Assembly (NCBI RefSeq): GCF_003790525.1
Contig: NZ_CP033635.1
Length of the DNA: 64,000 nucleotides
Direction: 5' to 3' (one strand)
Origin: Escherichia coli
GTDB lineage: Bacteria > Pseudomonadota > Gammaproteobacteria > Enterobacterales > Enterobacteriaceae
Shown here: in pieces, positions 4,068 through 11,677 of the stretch
How the letters are laid out: every line of letters starts with the position of its first letter
Numbering within the stretch: the first letter of the stretch is position 1
Translations under genes and position numbers: made by a program
Notes under the pieces: generated by a model
Seen by the model: the letters and a program-made list of their open reading frames with translations, nothing else
Databases searched by the model: none
Told to the model about the DNA's origin: nothing

Positions 4068-4505
4068 CTAGTTGAAATAAACAAATGCGCTGTCAGGAAT
4101 GACGGACGGCACGCTGATACCGGTGTCCTGACCTGTGGTGTTCAGCAGTCGCCGCCCCTTCACCCGGCCTGCCAGCGCGGTTTTGTGGGTGATGTCTGCC
4201 AGCGCACCTGCAAGCCCCGGGCGGTCATCCTGCCAGACAAAGACCCGCTGTCCGGCGATGATATGGCGGGTACCGTATACCGGGCGGAAACCCGTGGCGG
4301 TGACGGGGAGCGTGCCACCCCCCGTGCGCTCAGCCGGATGGGTGTACAGCCGGTCGTTAATGCCGTTCATGAGGCGGACCATCTCCCACGCACGTTCACG
4401 CATCTCCGCCTGCTCGCTGTACACGGTGACCCGGTGGGTACTGCTGTTGTGAAACCAGGTCAGCGCCACGGTCAGGGCCATGACCAGGGAGAGCGACCAG
4501 CCCAT
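4068..4505 (-). CDS. pilM: Type IVB pilus protein PilM-like
   Basis: Start at 4505 (MGWSLSLVMALTVALTW, N-terminal hydrophobic) lies 2 nt after the pilL stop; 145 aa, same length as R64 PilM. Confidence 0.45.
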   Translation of the reverse strand: MGWSLSLVMALTVALTWFHNSSTHRVTVYSEQAEMRERAWEMVRLMNGINDRLYTHPAERTGGGTLPVTATGFRPVYGTRHIIAGQRVFVWQDDRPGLAGALADITHKTALAGRVKGRRLLNTTGQDTGISVPSVIPDSAFVYFN

Positions 4506-4507
4506 GG

Positions 4508-5233
4508 TCAGTCTCCCGGTCTGTCGCTGACGTGCACCACACACTGCGTGCTGTTGATGGCTGCATACAGCGGCGTCTGTGCGTCCTGATAGAGACGGAA
4601 GAGTTCACTGAGCGCGTGGCGGAACTCGCCGGTGAAATGCAGCGGCGCATCGATGCTGTAATTGAGTCCGGGGTTCTGCCAGGCCAGCTGCCAGGTGCCA
4701 CCGGCCTGACAGGGAACGGCGGCCACCCACTGCTCAAGACCGGCACGCAGCAGGGTTCCGCGGGCAAGAGTCCAGGTGGTCCGTGCATGCGCCGGTTGCG
4801 GCATGTTTGCTGATTTTTCCGCGGTTTTTTCCTGCAGACTGGTGGTGCCCGGGGTGGCCTGAGACGGACTGAACAGGGTGTTCCGCTCAATACGTACATG
4901 CTTCTTCTCCGTGTCGGTGATGGCGCGGAGCTGATATTTTTTCAGCATGCGTTCCGTAACGTAATTCCACTGGTCATTTCCCTTCCATGACACCGTGCGG
5001 GGCGGCCTGACATCCGGTGCAATGTCAAATGTCCATCCCGGCGGTATCAGTTGCTGCATGGCTTTTTTCAGTGATAACCCTTTACCGTCCCGGGGAATAA
5101 ATTTCAGTGCTCCCGGAGCGCTGCTGACCGTGGACGATGAGGGTGCACTGACCTGAGAAGGTGACGGTGCAGCAAAAAGTGGAACAGAAAATGCCAGCAG
5201 CGGCACAATAAGAAGTGGTTTCAGTGGTGTCAT
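4508..5233 (-). CDS. pilL: Type IVB pilus protein PilL-like (secreted)
   Basis: 241-aa ORF with signal peptide MTPLKPLLIVPLLAFSVPLFA; second gene of the minus-strand operon. Confidence 0.45.
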   Translation of the reverse strand: MTPLKPLLIVPLLAFSVPLFAAPSPSQVSAPSSSTVSSAPGALKFIPRDGKGLSLKKAMQQLIPPGWTFDIAPDVRPPRTVSWKGNDQWNYVTERMLKKYQLRAITDTEKKHVRIERNTLFSPSQATPGTTSLQEKTAEKSANMPQPAHARTTWTLARGTLLRAGLEQWVAAVPCQAGGTWQLAWQNPGLNYSIDAPLHFTGEFRHALSELFRLYQDAQTPLYAAINSTQCVVHVSDRPGD

Positions 5234-5285
5234 ATTATGGTCCTGTATCGCACATTTTTTGTGTTTCCTGAGCCTGTATCCGGTT

Positions 5286-5504
5286 TTATTCCGGCTGAAC
5301 TCTGCTGCATGAGAATGCGGTGACGTTCACTTTCACACTGAACGATTTACCGGCCTCTTTTTCTTTTAAAAACAGCCTGACGCATTCAGGCTCAGTCATC
5401 GGTGTGTTCTGAAAACGCACCCAGGATACCGGTGCACCACCAGGCTTCAGGATGGTGGCTTCAATCCGGTATTTATGCGGTGTGGTGTCTGTTGTTGCTG
5501 TCAT
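5286..5504 (-). CDS. Small hypothetical protein (72 aa), first gene of the pil operon
   Basis: ATG at 5504 preceded by AGGAG at about 7 nt; no recognisable domain. Confidence 0.35.
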   Translation of the reverse strand: MTATTDTTPHKYRIEATILKPGGAPVSWVRFQNTPMTEPECVRLFLKEKEAGKSFSVKVNVTAFSCSRVQPE

Positions 5505-5512
5505 TCATGGCT

Positions 5513-5580
5513 CCTGTTGCCGGTTTCCGGTCCCGGAAAAACAGGCGACATCAGCAACAAGGGGAAAAACGCGATGTCGC
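5513..5580. promoter_or_regulatory. Palindrome cluster upstream of pil operon (candidate operator / oriT-related site)
   Basis: CCTGTT...TTTCCGG-TC-CCGGAAA...AACAGG (5513-5545) and 8-bp inverted repeat GCGACATC / GATGTCGC (5545-5580). Confidence 0.35.
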
Positions 5581-6030
5581 CTGAAAGGTACTGGTGCAGC
5601 GGTGCGTTGTACGGACGCAGGTCCGCACAACCGGAAATACACGGGATGATTCGGTCAGTGTATTTTCGTGTTGTGCGCCTGTACTGATACGGCAGGGTGT
5701 GATGAGTGTTACCTGTGGCTGCAGGCGCGGCACGTCACTCATAACGTAGCATTCTGTTTCCTCCTCAGCCCGGCTTCAGGGCGTTGCCGCAATACCCGAT
5801 TGTTAAAGAGCCTTACCGGCATGGTGTCCGGTGTCACCGCGCGGATAACGATACGGCGGTGTCTGAAGGGATGATGCTGCGGCGCTCTGCACATGGCGAC
5901 GATTAATTCTTTTTGTGTTTCTGAAAATTTATTGCCGGGAAATTTCTGGTGTGACAGGGTGAATTAATTCTGGTCAGCGACGCTCCTGAGAAGGCAGAGT
6001 GCGCTGACATTTCGTGAACGGAGGAATGCC

Positions 6031-7539
6031 ATGTCCCTGAATCCCACCGATGAACAGTCAGCCATCATTCACTGGCAGGGGGAAAAACTGGTGGTGAATG
6101 CCTTTGCCGGTACAGGCAAAACCAGCACACTGGTGCAGTTCGCCGCAGCCTGCCCTGAGAGCCGGATGCTGTATCTGGCCTATAACCGCGCGATTCGTGA
6201 TGAGGCGGAGCGCCGGTTTCCCTTTAATGTGGAGTGCAAAACCTCCCATCAGCTGGCGTATTCGCGGTTCGGAAAGCATTTCCGGCATCGTCTGGTGCCG
6301 GGGCTGTCAGTGACGGATGTAGCGAGAAAACTGAACACCCGCTACTGGACGCTTGCCCGTGTTGCCATGACCGCGCTGAATCAGTTCATCTGTTCGGCGG
6401 ACGTGGCGCCCGGAATGCAGCATATGCCGCCTCCCGACGAGATGAAGGGCATGTCGCCACAGGATGCGCTGCGTGCCGTGCAGATCCTCTGGCATGAAAT
6501 GAGCAATCCGGATGGCAATTTTCCGGTCACTCACGACACCTATCTGAAGCTCTATCAGCTTTCCTCACCGGATCTGTCACGCAGGTGGGATACGATCCTT
6601 TTTGATGAGGCCCAGGATGCGAATCCGGTGACGTCCGCACTGGTGCTGGGGCAGCGGTGCAGGGTGGTACTGGTTGGCGACCGTTACCAGCAGATTTATC
6701 GTTTTCGTGGTGCCAGCGATGCACTGTCGCATCCGGCACTGAACGGGGCGGACCGTCTCTGGCTGACGCAAAGTTTTCGTTTTGGTCCTGCCGTGGCCGG
6801 GGTGGCCAGCCAGTTACTGAAGCGTGCCGGCGAGAGCCGTGAGGTGACCGGCAGGGGCGGGGATGATGAAGTGCTGACGGCAGGTGAAATGCGTGCGCGC
6901 GTGAAGGCAGGGAAGATGACCGGTCACAGGGCGATACTGAGCCGGACGGTGGCCGGTGTGATTGGCACGGCACTGATGGCGGCAATGCGTGGCAGGAAGG
7001 TTTACTGGGTGGGGGGCATTGAAGGCTACAGAACGGAAGCACTGGAAGATCTTTACTGGTTTCAGATGGACATGCCGGAGCGGATGCACAGTGACAGACT
7101 GCGAAAGGACTACCGGAGTTTTGACGAGTACCGTCATATTGCGAAGGTGACGAAGGATGTGGAAATGAATCAGTCCATTCGTCTGCTGGAGCTGTGCTTT
7201 CCGCTGCCGAAGAAACTCGAACTTCTCAGAAAGCACACCGTCACGAATGAACAGGAGGCGGATATCACGGTCTCAACGGCACACCGCAGTAAGGGACTGG
7301 AGTGGGCACTGGTGATACTCGATGATGATTTTCAGGATATCACCGACCCGCTGATAAGCGAGCAGGAGCGGCGTGATGAAACCAATCTGCTCTATGTGGC
7401 GGTCACCCGGGCGCGCAGAACGCTGGTTCTCAATGAGCTCATGCAGCAACTGACGGAAGCTGCCGGCGATGGTGGTGCACCCGGAAACGCGCCGGTGCAG
7501 GGGAAGGAAGACGATGGCGTGGAGGGAGAGGATGTTTAA
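6031..7539 (+). CDS. SF1 (UvrD/Rep-like) DNA helicase
   Basis: 502-aa ORF; Walker A AFAGTGKTS; ILFDEAQD Walker B-like; C-terminal VSTAHRSKGLEW and LLYVAVTRAR motifs typical of UvrD_C; GGAGGAA RBS before the ATG. Confidence 0.75.
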   Translation: MSLNPTDEQSAIIHWQGEKLVVNAFAGTGKTSTLVQFAAACPESRMLYLAYNRAIRDEAERRFPFNVECKTSHQLAYSRFGKHFRHRLVPGLSVTDVARKLNTRYWTLARVAMTALNQFICSADVAPGMQHMPPPDEMKGMSPQDALRAVQILWHEMSNPDGNFPVTHDTYLKLYQLSSPDLSRRWDTILFDEAQDANPVTSALVLGQRCRVVLVGDRYQQIYRFRGASDALSHPALNGADRLWLTQSFRFGPAVAGVASQLLKRAGESREVTGRGGDDEVLTAGEMRARVKAGKMTGHRAILSRTVAGVIGTALMAAMRGRKVYWVGGIEGYRTEALEDLYWFQMDMPERMHSDRLRKDYRSFDEYRHIAKVTKDVEMNQSIRLLELCFPLPKKLELLRKHTVTNEQEADITVSTAHRSKGLEWALVILDDDFQDITDPLISEQERRDETNLLYVAVTRARRTLVLNELMQQLTEAAGDGGAPGNAPVQGKEDDGVEGEDV

Positions 7540-9157
7540 GCGGTTCAGACGTATGCTGCCCGGCACAAAGGTCACGGAGCCAGGCGTGGTCGCGCCGGTG
7601 ATACCGGCAGGGTTTTATGCGCCGCTCACAGCAGAAGCACTGTTATCACCAGAGCACAGGGAACTGAGGCTCAGGCAGGTATGGGATAACAATCCGATGC
7701 CCCGTGATGTATACGACAGGATGTGCCTTGCGCCACTCAGCCGGCTGTTGCTGAACACCCAGAATGTGCCGGCAACACGGGAAGGACGGTGGTCCCGTGC
7801 CGGTGGATTTGGTGATCTGACGGTACTGTACACCACGTATGCCGTTCGTCTGGCAAGAGGGTACATGTTTCCACCGGATGCGACCCCGGAAGACCAGGCG
7901 GCTCAGGCCGCAGTCTGGCATACGGTGATTTTCTGGTCAGCGCTGTTTTACCACCTGCCCCTGCTGGCGCACCTTGAGGGGGAGCTGCTGAGTGGTCGGG
8001 GCTGGCAGCCAGGGATTTCTGTGCCTGACGAACCTTTCCGTTTCCGGTTCAGGAAGACGGCGCCGCAGGGCACGGAAGCGCAACAACTGGCGGCCCTGAC
8101 TGCCGGCACGCTGTTACCGGACGGCGCAACGGCCTGGCTTGTGACGGCGCCGGGGGCGCTGCAGAATCTGGCCGGGGCGCTCTGGCATCAGCATCCCGGG
8201 ATGGCGCTGATTCGTGATGTGCTGCAGGAAGCGGCAAGGCAGACAGAGAGTCCGCTGAATACCTGCGCTGTCACTGCGCCGGTTACTGCGGAGGCTTCAG
8301 CAGACATCCGTCCTGCTGACCCGGTGGTGACCGGCAGCACGGACAGTGTGATGGCAGTCACTGAGGTGCAGCCGGCAGAGGAGGTGAAGACTGAGAGCGT
8401 GCAGACAGAGACTGAAGGTGGTGGTGAGTCCGCCGGAGCGTCAGAGGTGCCGTCCGCACAGCAGGAACTGACGGTTCAGACAGCGCCAGTGGTGACGGCA
8501 GATGATGAAGCGGTCAGTGCTTCTCCTGCGGATCAGGACACAGCAATGCTGCTGAGTCTTTTTTCAGCAGATGAGTCCGAAACTGCTGAACGGGATAATG
8601 GGGATGTGGTGATGCTGGCTGATGAGGAAGAAGCGCAGGATCTCACCGATGGACCGGATGAAGGCGATTCGTCTCCGGGCAGTATTCATGAATCGCCGTA
8701 TCTGGTGGAGAGTGACGCGTCGGTTAATCAGTCCGTATCCGGGGAATACCGCGCAACAGAAGTGAATCCGCTTACCGGAGATGATCCTGATTTAAAGGGA
8801 GAGACGTTTTTGGACTGGCTTAAAGCAGGGCTGAACAGTGGTGAGATATCATTTAACCAGAAAGGCGACAAAATACACATTGTTGCAGGACTGGTTTTCC
8901 TGCCGGTACCAGGCATTTTCTTTGATTACCTGAAAGCAGTGCAGCTTCCCGGGGACAAACGCCCGATTGTTCAGTCATCATTTGAGCGGCTCTGTATCAA
9001 TAAACGCCGTGATGACCAGCGTTTTTATTTTGCTCGTATTGCTGAGGAACCCGGGAACTGTGCACGTTACAAAACAGTCAAAGGTTACCTGGTCAAAGGA
9101 CGTAGTCTGATGCATGAAAGTAAACTGAAAGACAGTCCTTATCTTTTTATTTCGTGA
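7514..9157 (+). CDS. Putative conjugative relaxase (TraI_2 / MOBH-like) with acidic low-complexity linker
   Basis: ORF 7469..9157; start chosen at ATG 7514 (AAGGAAG RBS), overlapping helicase stop; C-terminal segment (IHIVAGLVFLPVPGIFFDYLK...) resembles TraI_2_C; family assignment is from memory. Confidence 0.5.
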   Translation: MAWRERMFKRFRRMLPGTKVTEPGVVAPVIPAGFYAPLTAEALLSPEHRELRLRQVWDNNPMPRDVYDRMCLAPLSRLLLNTQNVPATREGRWSRAGGFGDLTVLYTTYAVRLARGYMFPPDATPEDQAAQAAVWHTVIFWSALFYHLPLLAHLEGELLSGRGWQPGISVPDEPFRFRFRKTAPQGTEAQQLAALTAGTLLPDGATAWLVTAPGALQNLAGALWHQHPGMALIRDVLQEAARQTESPLNTCAVTAPVTAEASADIRPADPVVTGSTDSVMAVTEVQPAEEVKTESVQTETEGGGESAGASEVPSAQQELTVQTAPVVTADDEAVSASPADQDTAMLLSLFSADESETAERDNGDVVMLADEEEAQDLTDGPDEGDSSPGSIHESPYLVESDASVNQSVSGEYRATEVNPLTGDDPDLKGETFLDWLKAGLNSGEISFNQKGDKIHIVAGLVFLPVPGIFFDYLKAVQLPGDKRPIVQSSFERLCINKRRDDQRFYFARIAEEPGNCARYKTVKGYLVKGRSLMHESKLKDSPYLFIS

Positions 9158-9210
9158 GTGGAGGGGAGGCTATTATTGCAGGAATGTGAATGAAATGTAA
9201 AAGGTAATCA

Positions 9211-10200
9211 ATGAAAATAAATAATGCGGATAAGTGCTGGAATGATTTGATGGATGAGTTTTTTTTCTGCCGTTCAGTACGTGAAGCTACGGAGTGGAGC
9301 TACAGAAAGGTGCTGAACGGATTCCGTAAGTTTGTTGGCGGGACTCTGTTACCGGAAGATATCCGACAACAACATGTCAGGGAGTGGCGACGGGAGGTCC
9401 TGAAAAACCAGAAACGTTCAACTCATACATGGAACAACAAGGTACGCCATATGCGCGCTATCTTCAGTTTTGCTTCCTCATCTGAACTCCTGCATTTAAG
9501 TTGTAACCCGTTTGAGGGTATGAGCGTCAGACAGGAAAAGAAACGCAAAAAAACACTGACCCGGAAACAAATAAAACGCATCCTGCTGGTCCTTGAGCAG
9601 TTTCAGGAGGATGAAATGAACCTGAAGATGCACTGGAAGTGCGCCATTCGTCCGGCCTGGTACTGGATTATTGTGGTTAACACACTTCGCTTTACGGGGA
9701 TGAGGCTGAATCAGCTGCTGCATCTGCGCCTGCGGGATGTTAATCCTGAAGAACGGTGGATTGATTTATGCTCTGAAGGCAGCAAGACACATCATGAGTG
9801 GCGGATCCCGATGGTCAGTCATCTGGTTCCGGGGATAACCAGGCTGATGGATGAAGCGGTGAAACGTGGAGCCACGCCTGATGATTATCTTTTCCACTAT
9901 CATCGCTATGCTTTGCCTGTGTCTGAAGCATTATCGGTGAGCGGACCTCCGGAAGAGCAGAAGGTCAAAGGTTTTTTCCGGCGTCTGTCGAAAGAGTGTG
10001 GTTTTCAGGTATCTGCACATCGTTTCAGACACACTCTGGCAAGTACTCTGATGGCGGCACCGGAACGAAATCTGTACATGGTGAAAACCATGCTGGGTCA
10101 CCGGAATGTTTCAACGACACTGGAATATGTGGAGATGGATCTGAAGGGAACAGCACGTATACTTGAGGCCGAACTGTCAAAACTGACAGACGATCTTTAA
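9211..10200 (+). CDS. int: Tyrosine recombinase / integrase (329 aa)
   Basis: RBS AAGGTAA; catalytic-looking residues in LRFTGMR, HRFRHT, GHRNVSTT and LEYVE (R, H-x-x-R, H, Y); adjacent to tRNA-Phe 3' end. Confidence 0.85.
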   Translation: MKINNADKCWNDLMDEFFFCRSVREATEWSYRKVLNGFRKFVGGTLLPEDIRQQHVREWRREVLKNQKRSTHTWNNKVRHMRAIFSFASSSELLHLSCNPFEGMSVRQEKKRKKTLTRKQIKRILLVLEQFQEDEMNLKMHWKCAIRPAWYWIIVVNTLRFTGMRLNQLLHLRLRDVNPEERWIDLCSEGSKTHHEWRIPMVSHLVPGITRLMDEAVKRGATPDDYLFHYHRYALPVSEALSVSGPPEEQKVKGFFRRLSKECGFQVSAHRFRHTLASTLMAAPERNLYMVKTMLGHRNVSTTLEYVEMDLKGTARILEAELSKLTDDL

Positions 10201-10396
10201 TCAGGTGATTGCTTACAGTTGTTGACAACATGAAAAACCGTTGCAATCATAATGAATGATCGAGAAAGGGAGCATGCGACCAACATGCTCCCCAATCGAG
10301 AAAATGAGATGGCATGACCTAGACTCACGACATCTTGCACCTTCCCGATGACACCCGTCAGGGTTCTCACTCCTGACCAGTGGCTTTGATGTAAGG

Positions 10397-10472
10397 TGGT
10401 GCCCGGAGGCGGAATCGAACCACCGACACGGGGATTTTCAATCCCCTGCTCTACCGACTGAGCTATCCGGGC
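10397..10472 (-). tRNA. pheV: tRNA-Phe (GAA), pheV locus, variant T-stem
   Basis: Reverse complement reads GCCCGGATAGCTCAGTCGGTAGAGCAGGGGATTGAAAATCCCCGTGTCGGTGGTTCGATTCCGCCTCCGGGCACCA; matches E. coli tRNA-Phe except four compensatory T-stem changes. Confidence 0.9.
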
Positions 10473-10577
10473 AACGGGGCGCATTAAACCTGATTCGCCT
10501 CGTCTCGTCAATCAAATTTCTTCAATTTACTGCAGACTGCACAATCTATCATCACTTTGCCGCTATTGCACGCATTG

Positions 10578-11306
10578 TCAGGCAAACCAGGCGGTCCAGG
10601 CGGCGGAAAGCGGCATTGCCAGAAGGAGTGCTGGAAGCATGTTGACCACCGGGAACATTTTAATGCCACAGATGCGTAATCCGGTTGCCAGCAGCAATAA
10701 ACCGCCTACGGCGCTGAAGTCTGCCATCATCGACGGTGTGGTCAGCGGTAATATCAGCGCGGCAGCCCACGCCAGTGTTAACTGGATGATCAGTAATGGA
10801 ATGCTAATCACCGACACCGCAATACCCAGCGAGCAGGCGAAGATCATCGCCGTAAAGAAATCGAGAAATGACTTGGCGATTAAAATACTCGGATCGCCGG
10901 TCATCCCTTCGTTCATCGCCCCGAAGATCCCGGTGCCGCTGGCGCAAAACAGGACAATAATCGCGACATAATTCTGAATAAAAGATTCATGCGCTGGCTT
11001 CTTAGGTGAGTGGCGAAACAGATTTTGTGCTTTGGTGACCGCGGTATTGACCCCTTTTTCCAGCAGACACATTTCGCCGATTAATGCACCGAGTAAGGTT
11101 GCTAAAACCATCGCCGGAAGGTTGGCGCATTTCACCACCAGTAAAATACCAATCCCCAGCGATGCCAGACCAAAAATTGATGTCATGGAGACGCGGATAC
11201 GTTCCGGTAAGCGTTGACTAAGGAGTGCACCGAGAACGCCACCCAGTAATACTGCACTTGCGTTGATAAAAGGACCGATGACCACAAGAGTTCCTGTTAG
11301 CTGCAT
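10578..11306 (-). CDS. yqgA: DUF554 inner membrane protein YqgA
   Basis: 242-aa polytopic membrane ORF next to pheV as in K-12. Confidence 0.85.
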   Translation of the reverse strand: MQLTGTLVVIGPFINASAVLLGGVLGALLSQRLPERIRVSMTSIFGLASLGIGILLVVKCANLPAMVLATLLGALIGEMCLLEKGVNTAVTKAQNLFRHSPKKPAHESFIQNYVAIIVLFCASGTGIFGAMNEGMTGDPSILIAKSFLDFFTAMIFACSLGIAVSVISIPLLIIQLTLAWAAALILPLTTPSMMADFSAVGGLLLLATGLRICGIKMFPVVNMLPALLLAMPLSAAWTAWFA

Positions 11307-11677
11307 TGTCTGATTTTCTTATTATGACCGTTTGGCTCCTTCGATGGCTTGTTTGTTCGCAAAGTCCTGGCTTGCACGCTCTGGTGAAAGGTGCCATGAT
11401 TGCGCGAATTTTCTCCTCTCTGTACGGAGTTTGCCCGATGCACGCCACCTCCTTACATTCTCTCGCTTATCGCCGTTTCGCGCGAAACTCCTCCCTTTTT
11501 CTGCTCATGCGGTGAGGTTAACGCACGCTCACTGCAGGACAACAGTAAAATCAGAGCGTTTCTGCTTTTACTGATGTCTGGCGGTCGGAGCTGGTGACCA
11601 GTTTGACCCATATCTCGTGGGGCAGGGTTTTTCACCTTGTCCGGTATTCTTACTTCCCCGAAACGGGTTTTGCGCTT

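Follow-up and report, generated by a model that had tools for sequence, protein, structure and literature searches.

A divergent control region, with a leader-like element common to IncI2 plasmids, as the more plausible reading of the gap between the pilus and helicase-relaxase operons of an Escherichia coli ICE

A non-coding gap of 526 bp lies near the right end of an integrative conjugative element (ICE) of Escherichia coli, in the stretch of contig NZ_CP033635.1 analysed here (the window, 64 000 nt). It separates a leftward type IVb pilus operon, which begins with a DUF1187 gene, from a rightward operon for a UvrD-like helicase, the relaxase TraI and an integrase (Table 1). On balance, this gap is more plausibly a composite divergent control region than the main origin of transfer (oriT) of the ICE, and its left ~400 bp would serve as a leader that gates expression of the pilus. 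The anatomy of the gap, its conservation, the compensatory changes in its hairpins and the presence of its central element in IncI2 plasmids are established by the present analysis. If there is no such leader, what remains is a divergent promoter region of the ordinary kind.

Comparisons were made between two ICE lineages with the same gene order, that of the window (lineage A) and a second one represented by three loci, L002-L004, and metagenome contigs (lineage B). The gap aligns between them at 71 % identity, on a par with the flanking coding DNA (74-75 %; 74.6 % over 5329-8257), and it is conserved between these related elements. The divergent promoter/operator region proposed in the initial annotation is supported by this coding-level conservation, by the arrangement of the genes and by a promoter candidate at a conserved position. 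One block (5704-5812, 110 nt) stands out as nearly perfect, with exact runs of 37 and 41 nt between flanks that are 55-75 % identical. In the local hairpins, termed H1 to H4, 97.6 % of cells are paired in the comparison of the two lineages, and eight pairs are compensatory, where shuffles gave 2.2 ± 1.3 and slid controls 0-3. These compensatory changes fall in H2, H3, and H4.

The two sides of the gap have different distributions. At least five E. coli lineages besides these two have the module of helicase, TraI, integrase, and tRNA-Phe; their helicase genes are 68-75 % identical, their upstream gaps span 125-858 bp, and their upstream neighbours are cargo (for example adhesins, pga, or defence genes). 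Conservation among the seven lineages, with fixed spacing and differing neighbours, is confined to the 95-130 bp directly preceding the helicase ATG, and these are probably the promoter and 5′ untranslated region of the helicase-traI-int operon. A scan for sigma-70-like candidates and manual inspection found no convincing conserved sigma-70 or sigma-54 match on the plus strand, and the conserved module may be activator-dependent. The left and central ~400 bp, on the other hand, are absent from loci L085, L086, and L107-L110 and from the complete ICE of strain ECOR29 (L112), despite an intact helicase-TraI-integrase set. In the ECOR29 element, of the mating-pair formation (MPF) type MPF_G, just 125 bp precede the helicase, and there is no pil operon beside it. 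Because the hairpin- and core-bearing 400 bp are absent where the pil neighbour is absent, they belong with DUF1187-pil, and not with the helicase and relaxase. Pseudomonas loci of the ICEclc type were uninformative as comparators, the UvrD-like helicase being within the MPF operon there and not beside traI, and in footprinting across species with 80 helicase loci the upstream regions were not alignable outside E. coli.

The candidate promoter for the leftward operon lies in the AT-rich middle of the gap. It has the top score at the same alignment columns in both lineages (7.0 and 9.0), with the -35 hexamer GTCACA in one and GTGACC in the other, and the predicted start at ~5919 would give a leader of ~415 nt. 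From there, the transcript would pass through the core (5815-5694), then H2 (5680-5620), then H1 (5583-5542), and the UUUUU that follows H1 (5541-5537). This order of core, H2, H1, and U-tract ahead of the DUF1187 ribosome-binding site suggests control after initiation, so that expression of the type IVb pilus could be gated by attenuation, or by translation of a mini-ORF (short open reading frame) that opens H3. Transcription start, termination, and mini-ORF function are all sequence-based predictions. The ATTAAT-core boxes on either side of the promoter candidate may bind a regulator or H-NS, and the AT-rich segment and its boxes are candidate operator or H-NS nucleation sites.

A GC-rich hairpin with a U-tract is present between the promoter, at its predicted position, and the first gene in both lineages. 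In the window this hairpin, H1, has a folding free energy of -22.1 kcal/mol (z -4.0) and ends ~20 nt before the DUF1187 Shine-Dalgarno (SD) sequence. In lineage B it has the form of a textbook intrinsic terminator, with a 12 bp stem, an 8 nt loop, UUUUUU, and a free energy of -20.1 (z -5.1). Its arms and the A/T-run are conserved between the lineages; a simple terminator scan missed H1 because its loop is longer than 8 nt. In the consensus fold, with weak support, the U-tract pairs with an upstream A-run, which might serve as an antiterminator. The long imperfect hairpin H2 has a free energy of -34.4 on the plus strand (z -6.5) and -26.7 on the minus strand (z -5.2), and two of its pairs have compensatory double changes (ATACAC/GTGTAT versus ACGCAC/GTGCGT). 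Relative to shuffles, the left 326 nt fold with z-scores of -2.2 to -2.9, and single hairpins with z-scores of -4 to -6.5.

The core has invariant sense-strand motifs (TCTTTAACA, GCGG, CCTGAAGCC, GGAGG, GCTACGT, GAGTGACGTGCCGCGCC, and ACAGGTAAC) and contains H3, together with a strong SD sequence and a mini-ORF, the stop codon of which sits in the 5′ arm of H3. An nhmmer profile of the gap matches IncI2 plasmid loci exactly over the core (E=1e-8), and a profile of the core alone matches them with E=2e-28 to 6e-31, with one copy per element in 1.14 Mb of locus sequence. In IncI2 plasmids of ~60 kb, which have a MOBP relaxase and MPF_T, the core lies between the leftward repA and a rightward CaiF/GrlA-DUF1187-SPFH-NfeD-...TrbL operon; in a 37 kb subgroup, the genes downstream of it are small ORFs and then virB1, virB3, and virB4. 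Its orientation is always sense with the downstream operon, which corresponds to the minus strand of the window. The strong SD and a short ORF are present in all four lineages, with stops at or beside the same GAGTGA: MLRYE* in the window, MLRRE* in lineage B, and, in the IncI2 plasmids, a 17-codon ORF ending ..GYVTE* and a 16-codon ORF ending ..GYV*. A metagenome scan with a 22-mer of the core returned the same two ICE lineages only, plus one match of 25 nt. This exact match (TCCTCCTCAGCCCGGCTTCAGGGCG) is intergenic in a GC-rich and otherwise unrelated soil contig (Ga0190273_10018383; L104:1299-1324), where it is flanked by an inverted repeat of its own; it is provisionally taken as chance.

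It is conceivable, if doubtful, that the core (SD, mini-ORF, and a hairpin with a conserved loop) acts in cis as a regulatory leader element of a kind not described before and, with the terminator-like hairpin of the ICEs, gates conjugative pilus or type IV secretion system operons in ICEEc2-type ICEs and IncI2 plasmids alike. A conserved leader-like core common to these elements appears to be undescribed. It resembles attenuator leaders, such as those of repR-repA in IncI2 (PMC8053102) and repY-repZ in IncI1/IncB, in which an SD-led short ORF overlaps a stem-loop and a hairpin lies near the downstream ribosome-binding site. The locus is a different one, however: the IncI2 copy of the core is 700-850 nt upstream of repA, on the opposite strand, and outside the IncI2 repR-repA control region, which has been mapped to -497..+45 (PMC8053102). 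In the present case the leader role is putative, and any antisense RNA or pseudoknot would be hypothetical.

Several observations weigh against a leader. The promoter, the start, and the terminator are predictions from the sequence, the promoter scores are modest, and a stricter consensus scan for promoters and terminators found nothing inside the gap. The H1 loop of the window is unusually long (13-20 nt). The mini-ORF differs in frame and length between the ICEs and IncI2. The covariation statistics are weak, and supportive only, because the whole leader is present in just two independent ICE lineages, and across ICEs and IncI2 plasmids the core is conserved at the level of sequence, with little covariation, which a protein-binding DNA site would fit as well as an RNA element. 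The plus strand also folds somewhat better than the minus strand, via many G-U pairs, which could reflect a function of a plus-strand RNA, an antisense RNA, or single-stranded DNA.

The sequence-level conservation of the core speaks for a reading in which the core and the boxes are double-stranded DNA operators, bound by a TprA-like ribbon-helix-helix protein, a CaiF/GrlA-type activator, or H-NS, the hairpins being mere by-products of palindromic sites with no leader-RNA mechanism. The AT-richness of the middle segment is in keeping with this, and box 1 (ACGATTAATT) resembles the published high-affinity motif of H-NS (TCGATAAATT). A parallel exists in PAPI-1, in which control of the pilL2 promoter extends far upstream, with a TprA site at -254 to -287, and MvaT silences it (PMC8565334); this long control region is equally a precedent for the leader reading. 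By description, that region is like the gap in being the long control region of a conjugative type IVb pilus operon in an MPF_G ICE, with an essential element that lies ~250-290 bp ahead of the first gene, and with AT-rich DNA silenced by a nucleoid protein (PMC8565334). It differs in that homologues of TprA and of the YejK-like NdpA2 are not annotated in the E. coli ICE (by annotation only, hypothetical proteins aside), and in that the E. coli element has the SD, the mini-ORF, and the terminator-like hairpin, none of which is described for PAPI-1. TprA also binds 13 promoters, whereas a search of the 87 kb ICE for a regulon or second copy found motifs of the gap (at least 12 nt) elsewhere only at chance level (9 matches against ~5 expected, the latter an estimate made here). 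The retention of the SD and short ORF in four lineages, of the terminator-like hairpin and U-tract in both ICE lineages, and of pairing through compensatory changes in H2, H3, and H4 likewise counts against operators alone, and this explanation is considered improbable.

The better folding of the plus strand could instead point to a small RNA or a cis-antisense RNA from that strand, pairing with the SD and mini-ORF of the leader in the manner of FinP/traJ or of Inc RNAs. The consensus fold is -127.5 kcal/mol on the plus strand, against -94.5 on the minus strand, with 15 compensatory pairs, and a CCUCCUC on this strand has a complement in each of two SD sequences, that of the leader and that of the helicase (GGAGGAA). 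Against such an RNA, a conserved plus-strand promoter is absent from the right place, the scan gave no plus-strand terminator, there is no Rfam match, and the shuffle-corrected z-scores of the two strands are similar. It is considered very improbable. The Rfam 15 covariance scan, over 4500-11600, found nothing at E <= 1 except the tRNA-Phe and a chance miRNA match.

The gap had also been annotated as possibly an oriT. The gap, or its helicase-proximal part, could be the oriT of the adjacent TraI, of the PFGI-1/ICEclc class of MOB_H relaxases, perhaps as a second oriT beside one associated with a MOB_M relaxase. Upstream of the relaxase operon, in which helicase and traI overlap, no large space between genes comes before it, and this is the usual place of an oriT; a recent survey applied the same first-large-gap rule. 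An oriT of this kind would resemble oriT1 of ICEclc and the oriT of the gonococcal GGI. ICEclc oriT1, the account of which is reportedly that of Miyazaki and van der Meer from 2011, is reported to lie beside its relaxase, and ICEclc has two oriTs, to which a second, TraI-specific oriT would be a parallel. The GGI oriT is in the divergent gap upstream of the traI operon, and it is its hairpin structure, not its sequence, that matters (PMC6736028). The present gap is likewise divergent and upstream of the operon for the relaxase, H2 has changes of this structure-preserving kind, and an AT-rich tract is present. Of the hairpins, H2 and H3 are conserved; a conserved nic region next to them would be hypothetical. 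In addition, a mosaic relative with a different TraI C-terminus and integrase has inherited the gap together with the helicase and 374 N-terminal residues of TraI, as one block of 99.3 % identity. ICEs of this kind, at pheV or pheU, transfer themselves and drive transfer of large segments of the E. coli chromosome resembling that of Hfr (high frequency of recombination) strains, with oriT unmapped (PMC13127887); no direction of Hfr transfer is given in the text of that paper.

Against this, five or more other lineages of the helicase-TraI-integrase module, one of them a complete ICE, are without H1 to H4 and the core, so that the region from 5505 to ~5900 does not travel with the relaxase and only the proximal 95-130 bp do. 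The hairpins of the gap thus differ from MOB_H oriTs in not being tied to the relaxase module across lineages. The core is common to the MOBP plasmids of IncI2, at a position unrelated to their relaxase genes. The gap was found only inside these ICEs (54 genomes), whereas the region upstream of a MOB_M-like gene elsewhere in the ICE is present in 710 genomes, including TAI islands without conjugation genes, and leading-region genes (ArdA, DUF1281, methylase) come after that region and not after the gap. STY4665-like TraI proteins are, moreover, reported to be without HD/3H motifs. An oriT of TraI in the gap is therefore considered unlikely. The annotation as oriT is not upheld for the left and central 400 bp, and this ICE type has a better candidate elsewhere; the helicase-proximal 95-130 bp could still contain an oriT.

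The better candidate is suggested by a preprint of 2026, which reports that a MOB_M relaxase of tyrosine-recombinase-like type has been overlooked in MPF_G ICEs, where it is often present, and that oriT lies between its gene and the MPF genes (bioRxiv 10.64898/2026.01.13.699239). SGI-4 is an ICE of Salmonella that has this helicase-traI-int end at tRNA-Phe as well. According to the same preprint, it carries such a previously unrecognized relaxase, and its oriT, localized by experiment, shares 60 % identity with the oriT_rM6 region of the O157 TAI islands. The whole ICE in strain GF60 (locus L090) contains, ~33 kb left of the gap and outside the window, a non-coding region of 1.2 kb followed by a MOB_M / MpsAB-like gene pair (L090:9690-12584). 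One gene of the pair has Integrase_1 and Phage_int_SAM_2 domains and its neighbour has Phage_int_SAM_2 and DUF3268, which recalls MpsA/MpsB of SGI1; distant relatives of the MOB_M-like gene are found on small 'non-mobilizable' plasmids and on Clostridium plasmids. The non-coding region itself (L090:9690-10922) has two 15 nt inverted repeats and is followed by the ArdA, DUF1281, and methylase genes, typical of leading regions. It has matches in 710 of 5426 E. coli genomes, is 83 % identical to an unannotated stretch of the O157:H7 ure/ter TAI island, and has a homologue in ICE lineage B that is 88.6 % identical.

This region is the counterpart of oriT_rM6 in the SGI-4/TAI system, the MOB_M proteins of which are MpsA/TcpM/MobK-like, and the ICE has a backbone of the same family (parA...traD...helicase-traI-int at tRNA-Phe). 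The counterpart is without similarity to 5505-6030, which matches ICE copies only and does not resemble an oriT of the oriT_rM6/SGI-4 type; the similarity to TAI islands belongs to L090:9690-10922. Because of the MOB_M neighbour, the TAI homology, the leading-region genes, and the wide occurrence of this region, compared with a gap that is confined to ICEs, the oriT of the ICE is more likely to be on the MOB_M side, and L090:9690-12584 is likely to be the real oriT and leading region of this ICE type. For the oriT_rM6-MOB_M system, Neupane 2025 is reportedly a further source. The gap had been described as the largest non-coding stretch in the island part, and this is correct for the window, but the whole ICE has larger ones, such as this 1.2 kb region.

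The repeats and palindromes listed in the initial annotation were all found in the sequence at their positions. The gap is indeed rich in palindromes: it has 11 perfect inverted repeats of 8-mers, where 1000 dinucleotide shuffles gave 3.4 ± 2.3 (p ~0.009), and 19 inverted repeats of 7-mers, where the shuffles gave 4.8 ± 2.8 (p < 0.001). The nested palindrome nearest to DUF1187 consists of CCTGTT (5513-5518), TTTCCGGTCCCGGAAA (5524-5539), and AACAGG (5540-5545), and on the minus-strand RNA it could sequester the DUF1187 SD; neither it nor CCGCGCGG is conserved in lineage B. An 8 bp inverted repeat, GCGACATC (5545-5552) and GATGTCGC (5573-5580), is present, but its true extent is a perfect 11 nt (5542-5552 and 5573-5583), the arms of H1. 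The direct repeat ATTAATTCT, at 5902 and 5963, has both copies kept in lineage B, although on its own it is at chance level (p ~0.37). Two long ORFs in the gap, of 63 aa (minus strand, 5551-5742) and 68 aa (plus strand, 5668-5874), are ruled out as genes by lineage B indels of 1, 2, 6, and 11 nt across them. Manual inspection for sigma-54, LexA, and CRP sites in the gap yielded candidates that fail in spacing or conservation.

Table 1. Features of the gap and neighbouring genes, with positions in the window
Feature	Position	Strand	Details
DUF1187 gene	5286-5504	minus	Pfam PF06688, E=7e-23; annotated likewise in identical E. coli ICEs
Divergent gap	5505-6030		526 bp; between DUF1187 and the UvrD-like helicase
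DUF1187 SD	5512-5516	minus	AGGAG, 7 nt before ATG 5504; same layout in lineage B
Nested palindrome	5513-5545		CCTGTT..TTTCCGG TC CCGGAAA..AACAGG; lineage A only; overlaps DUF1187 SD
H1, terminator-like hairpin	5535-5583	minus	Arms 5542-5552 / 5573-5583, then U-tract 5541-5537
H2, long imperfect hairpin	5620-5680		Arms ~5624-5642 / 5658-5677
Core leader element (candidate)	5694-5815	minus	122 nt, nearly invariant between lineages A and B; homologues in IncI2
H3, hairpin in core	5699-5708 / 5736-5745
Strong SD and mini-ORF	5735-5766	minus	SD GAGGAGG 5766-5760; ATG 5752 to TGA 5735 (MLRYE*)
H4, small hairpin	5815-5833		ACCGG..CCGGT (lineage B ACCGTT..AACGGT); one compensatory pair
Palindrome	5837-5844		CCGCGCGG
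AT-rich segment	5895-5975		38 % GC, 56 % in flanks; two ATTAAT-core boxes either side of candidate promoter
ATTAAT-core boxes	5899-5910; 5961-5971		ACGATTAATTCT; GAATTAATTCT; kept in lineage B, partly in L107, L085, L109
Candidate sigma-70-like promoter	5926-5955	minus	-35 GTCACA (5955-5950), 18 nt spacer, -10 TAAATT (5931-5926)
Helicase-proximal module	5938-6030	plus	AAATTT..TTAAT..TGGT..GCAGAGTG..SD GGAGG (6020-6024)..ATG 6031; seven-lineage conservation
UvrD-like helicase	6031-7539	plus	Pfam/NCBIfam
TraI	7469-9157 (ORF)	plus	TIGR03760; start annotated in homologue ~7532
Tyrosine integrase	9211-10200	plus	Pfam/NCBIfam; tRNA-Phe next
tRNA-Phe	10397-10472	minus	ICE insertion site

Positions 1 to ~10,400 of the window are the right end of an ICE of the ICEEc2/SPI-7/PAPI-1 type inserted at tRNA-Phe, and the insertion site is pheV, as yqgA and speC come after the tRNA gene. 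The leftward operon continues from DUF1187 through pilL (TcpQ-like), pilM, pilN, and pilO. The same DNA, at 99-100 % identity, is present in 36 complete E. coli genomes, at pheV or pheU, with all copies chromosomal and none on a plasmid. For the pheV/pheU ICEs of the ICEEc2 kind, Roche 2010 is said to be the source. The whole element in GF60 is ~87 kb and includes parA, dnaB-PI, parB, topoisomerase III, ssb, traD, MPF_G genes, traG, cargo, a shufflon-bearing type IVb pil operon, helicase, traI, and int. The PFGI-1-class TraI, the XerC/D-like integrase at a tRNA gene, the MPF_G genes, parA-dnaB-parB, and pil place it in the ICEEc2/SPI-7/PAPI-1 (MPF_G) family. TraI scores 193 bits against TIGR03760 ('ICE relaxase, PFGI-1 class'; cut-off 161), and its C-terminal domain resembles STY4665 of SPI-7 (PDB 2IPQ, E=2e-16).

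The longest ORF of TraI, from 7469, overlaps the helicase gene by 71 nt; the start at ~7532, annotated in a relative with 99.3 % identical DNA, reduces the overlap to 8 nt, and helicase and TraI appear to be translationally coupled with either start. A mosaic breakpoint lies within traI when window ~8591-10200 is compared with L001 and L090, identity being 99.3 % up to 8591 with divergence beyond it, TraI being 76 % identical overall and the integrase 47 %. Locus L004 has the gap and helicase of lineage B, yet its integrase is 81 % identical to that of the window. Within the helicase gene, 7129-7178 is a run of 50 nt identical in lineages A and B, the longest in the 3 kb comparison, where the average is ~76 %; gene conversion or a functional site embedded in the gene could account for it. 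In L088 (6033-7491), a ParA gene ~340 bp past the integrase stands in place of tRNA-Phe and core genes, which suggests a tandem array or an excised circular form in the assembly.

DUF1187 was also examined as a possible regulator. Its AlphaFold model (predicted local distance difference test score 75.6) has a beta-beta-alpha-beta fold, with two conserved Cys, and has no significant match in the PDB. DUF1187 genes elsewhere (L094-L096; L091; L112:17726-17929) are found in lambdoid prophage nin regions beside NinB and in IncI2 plasmids after a CaiF/GrlA regulator, and the MPF region of the ECOR29 ICE contains one that is flanked by large non-coding stretches.

For the pheV/pheU ICEs that drive Hfr-like transfer, in which oriT and the regulation of transfer are unmapped (PMC13127887), this analysis points the search for oriT to the MOB_M-side region and defines a candidate control element for the conjugative pilus operon. 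Because the same element precedes the transfer operons of IncI2 plasmids, the main carriers of mcr-1, a common conjugation switch would be of practical interest.

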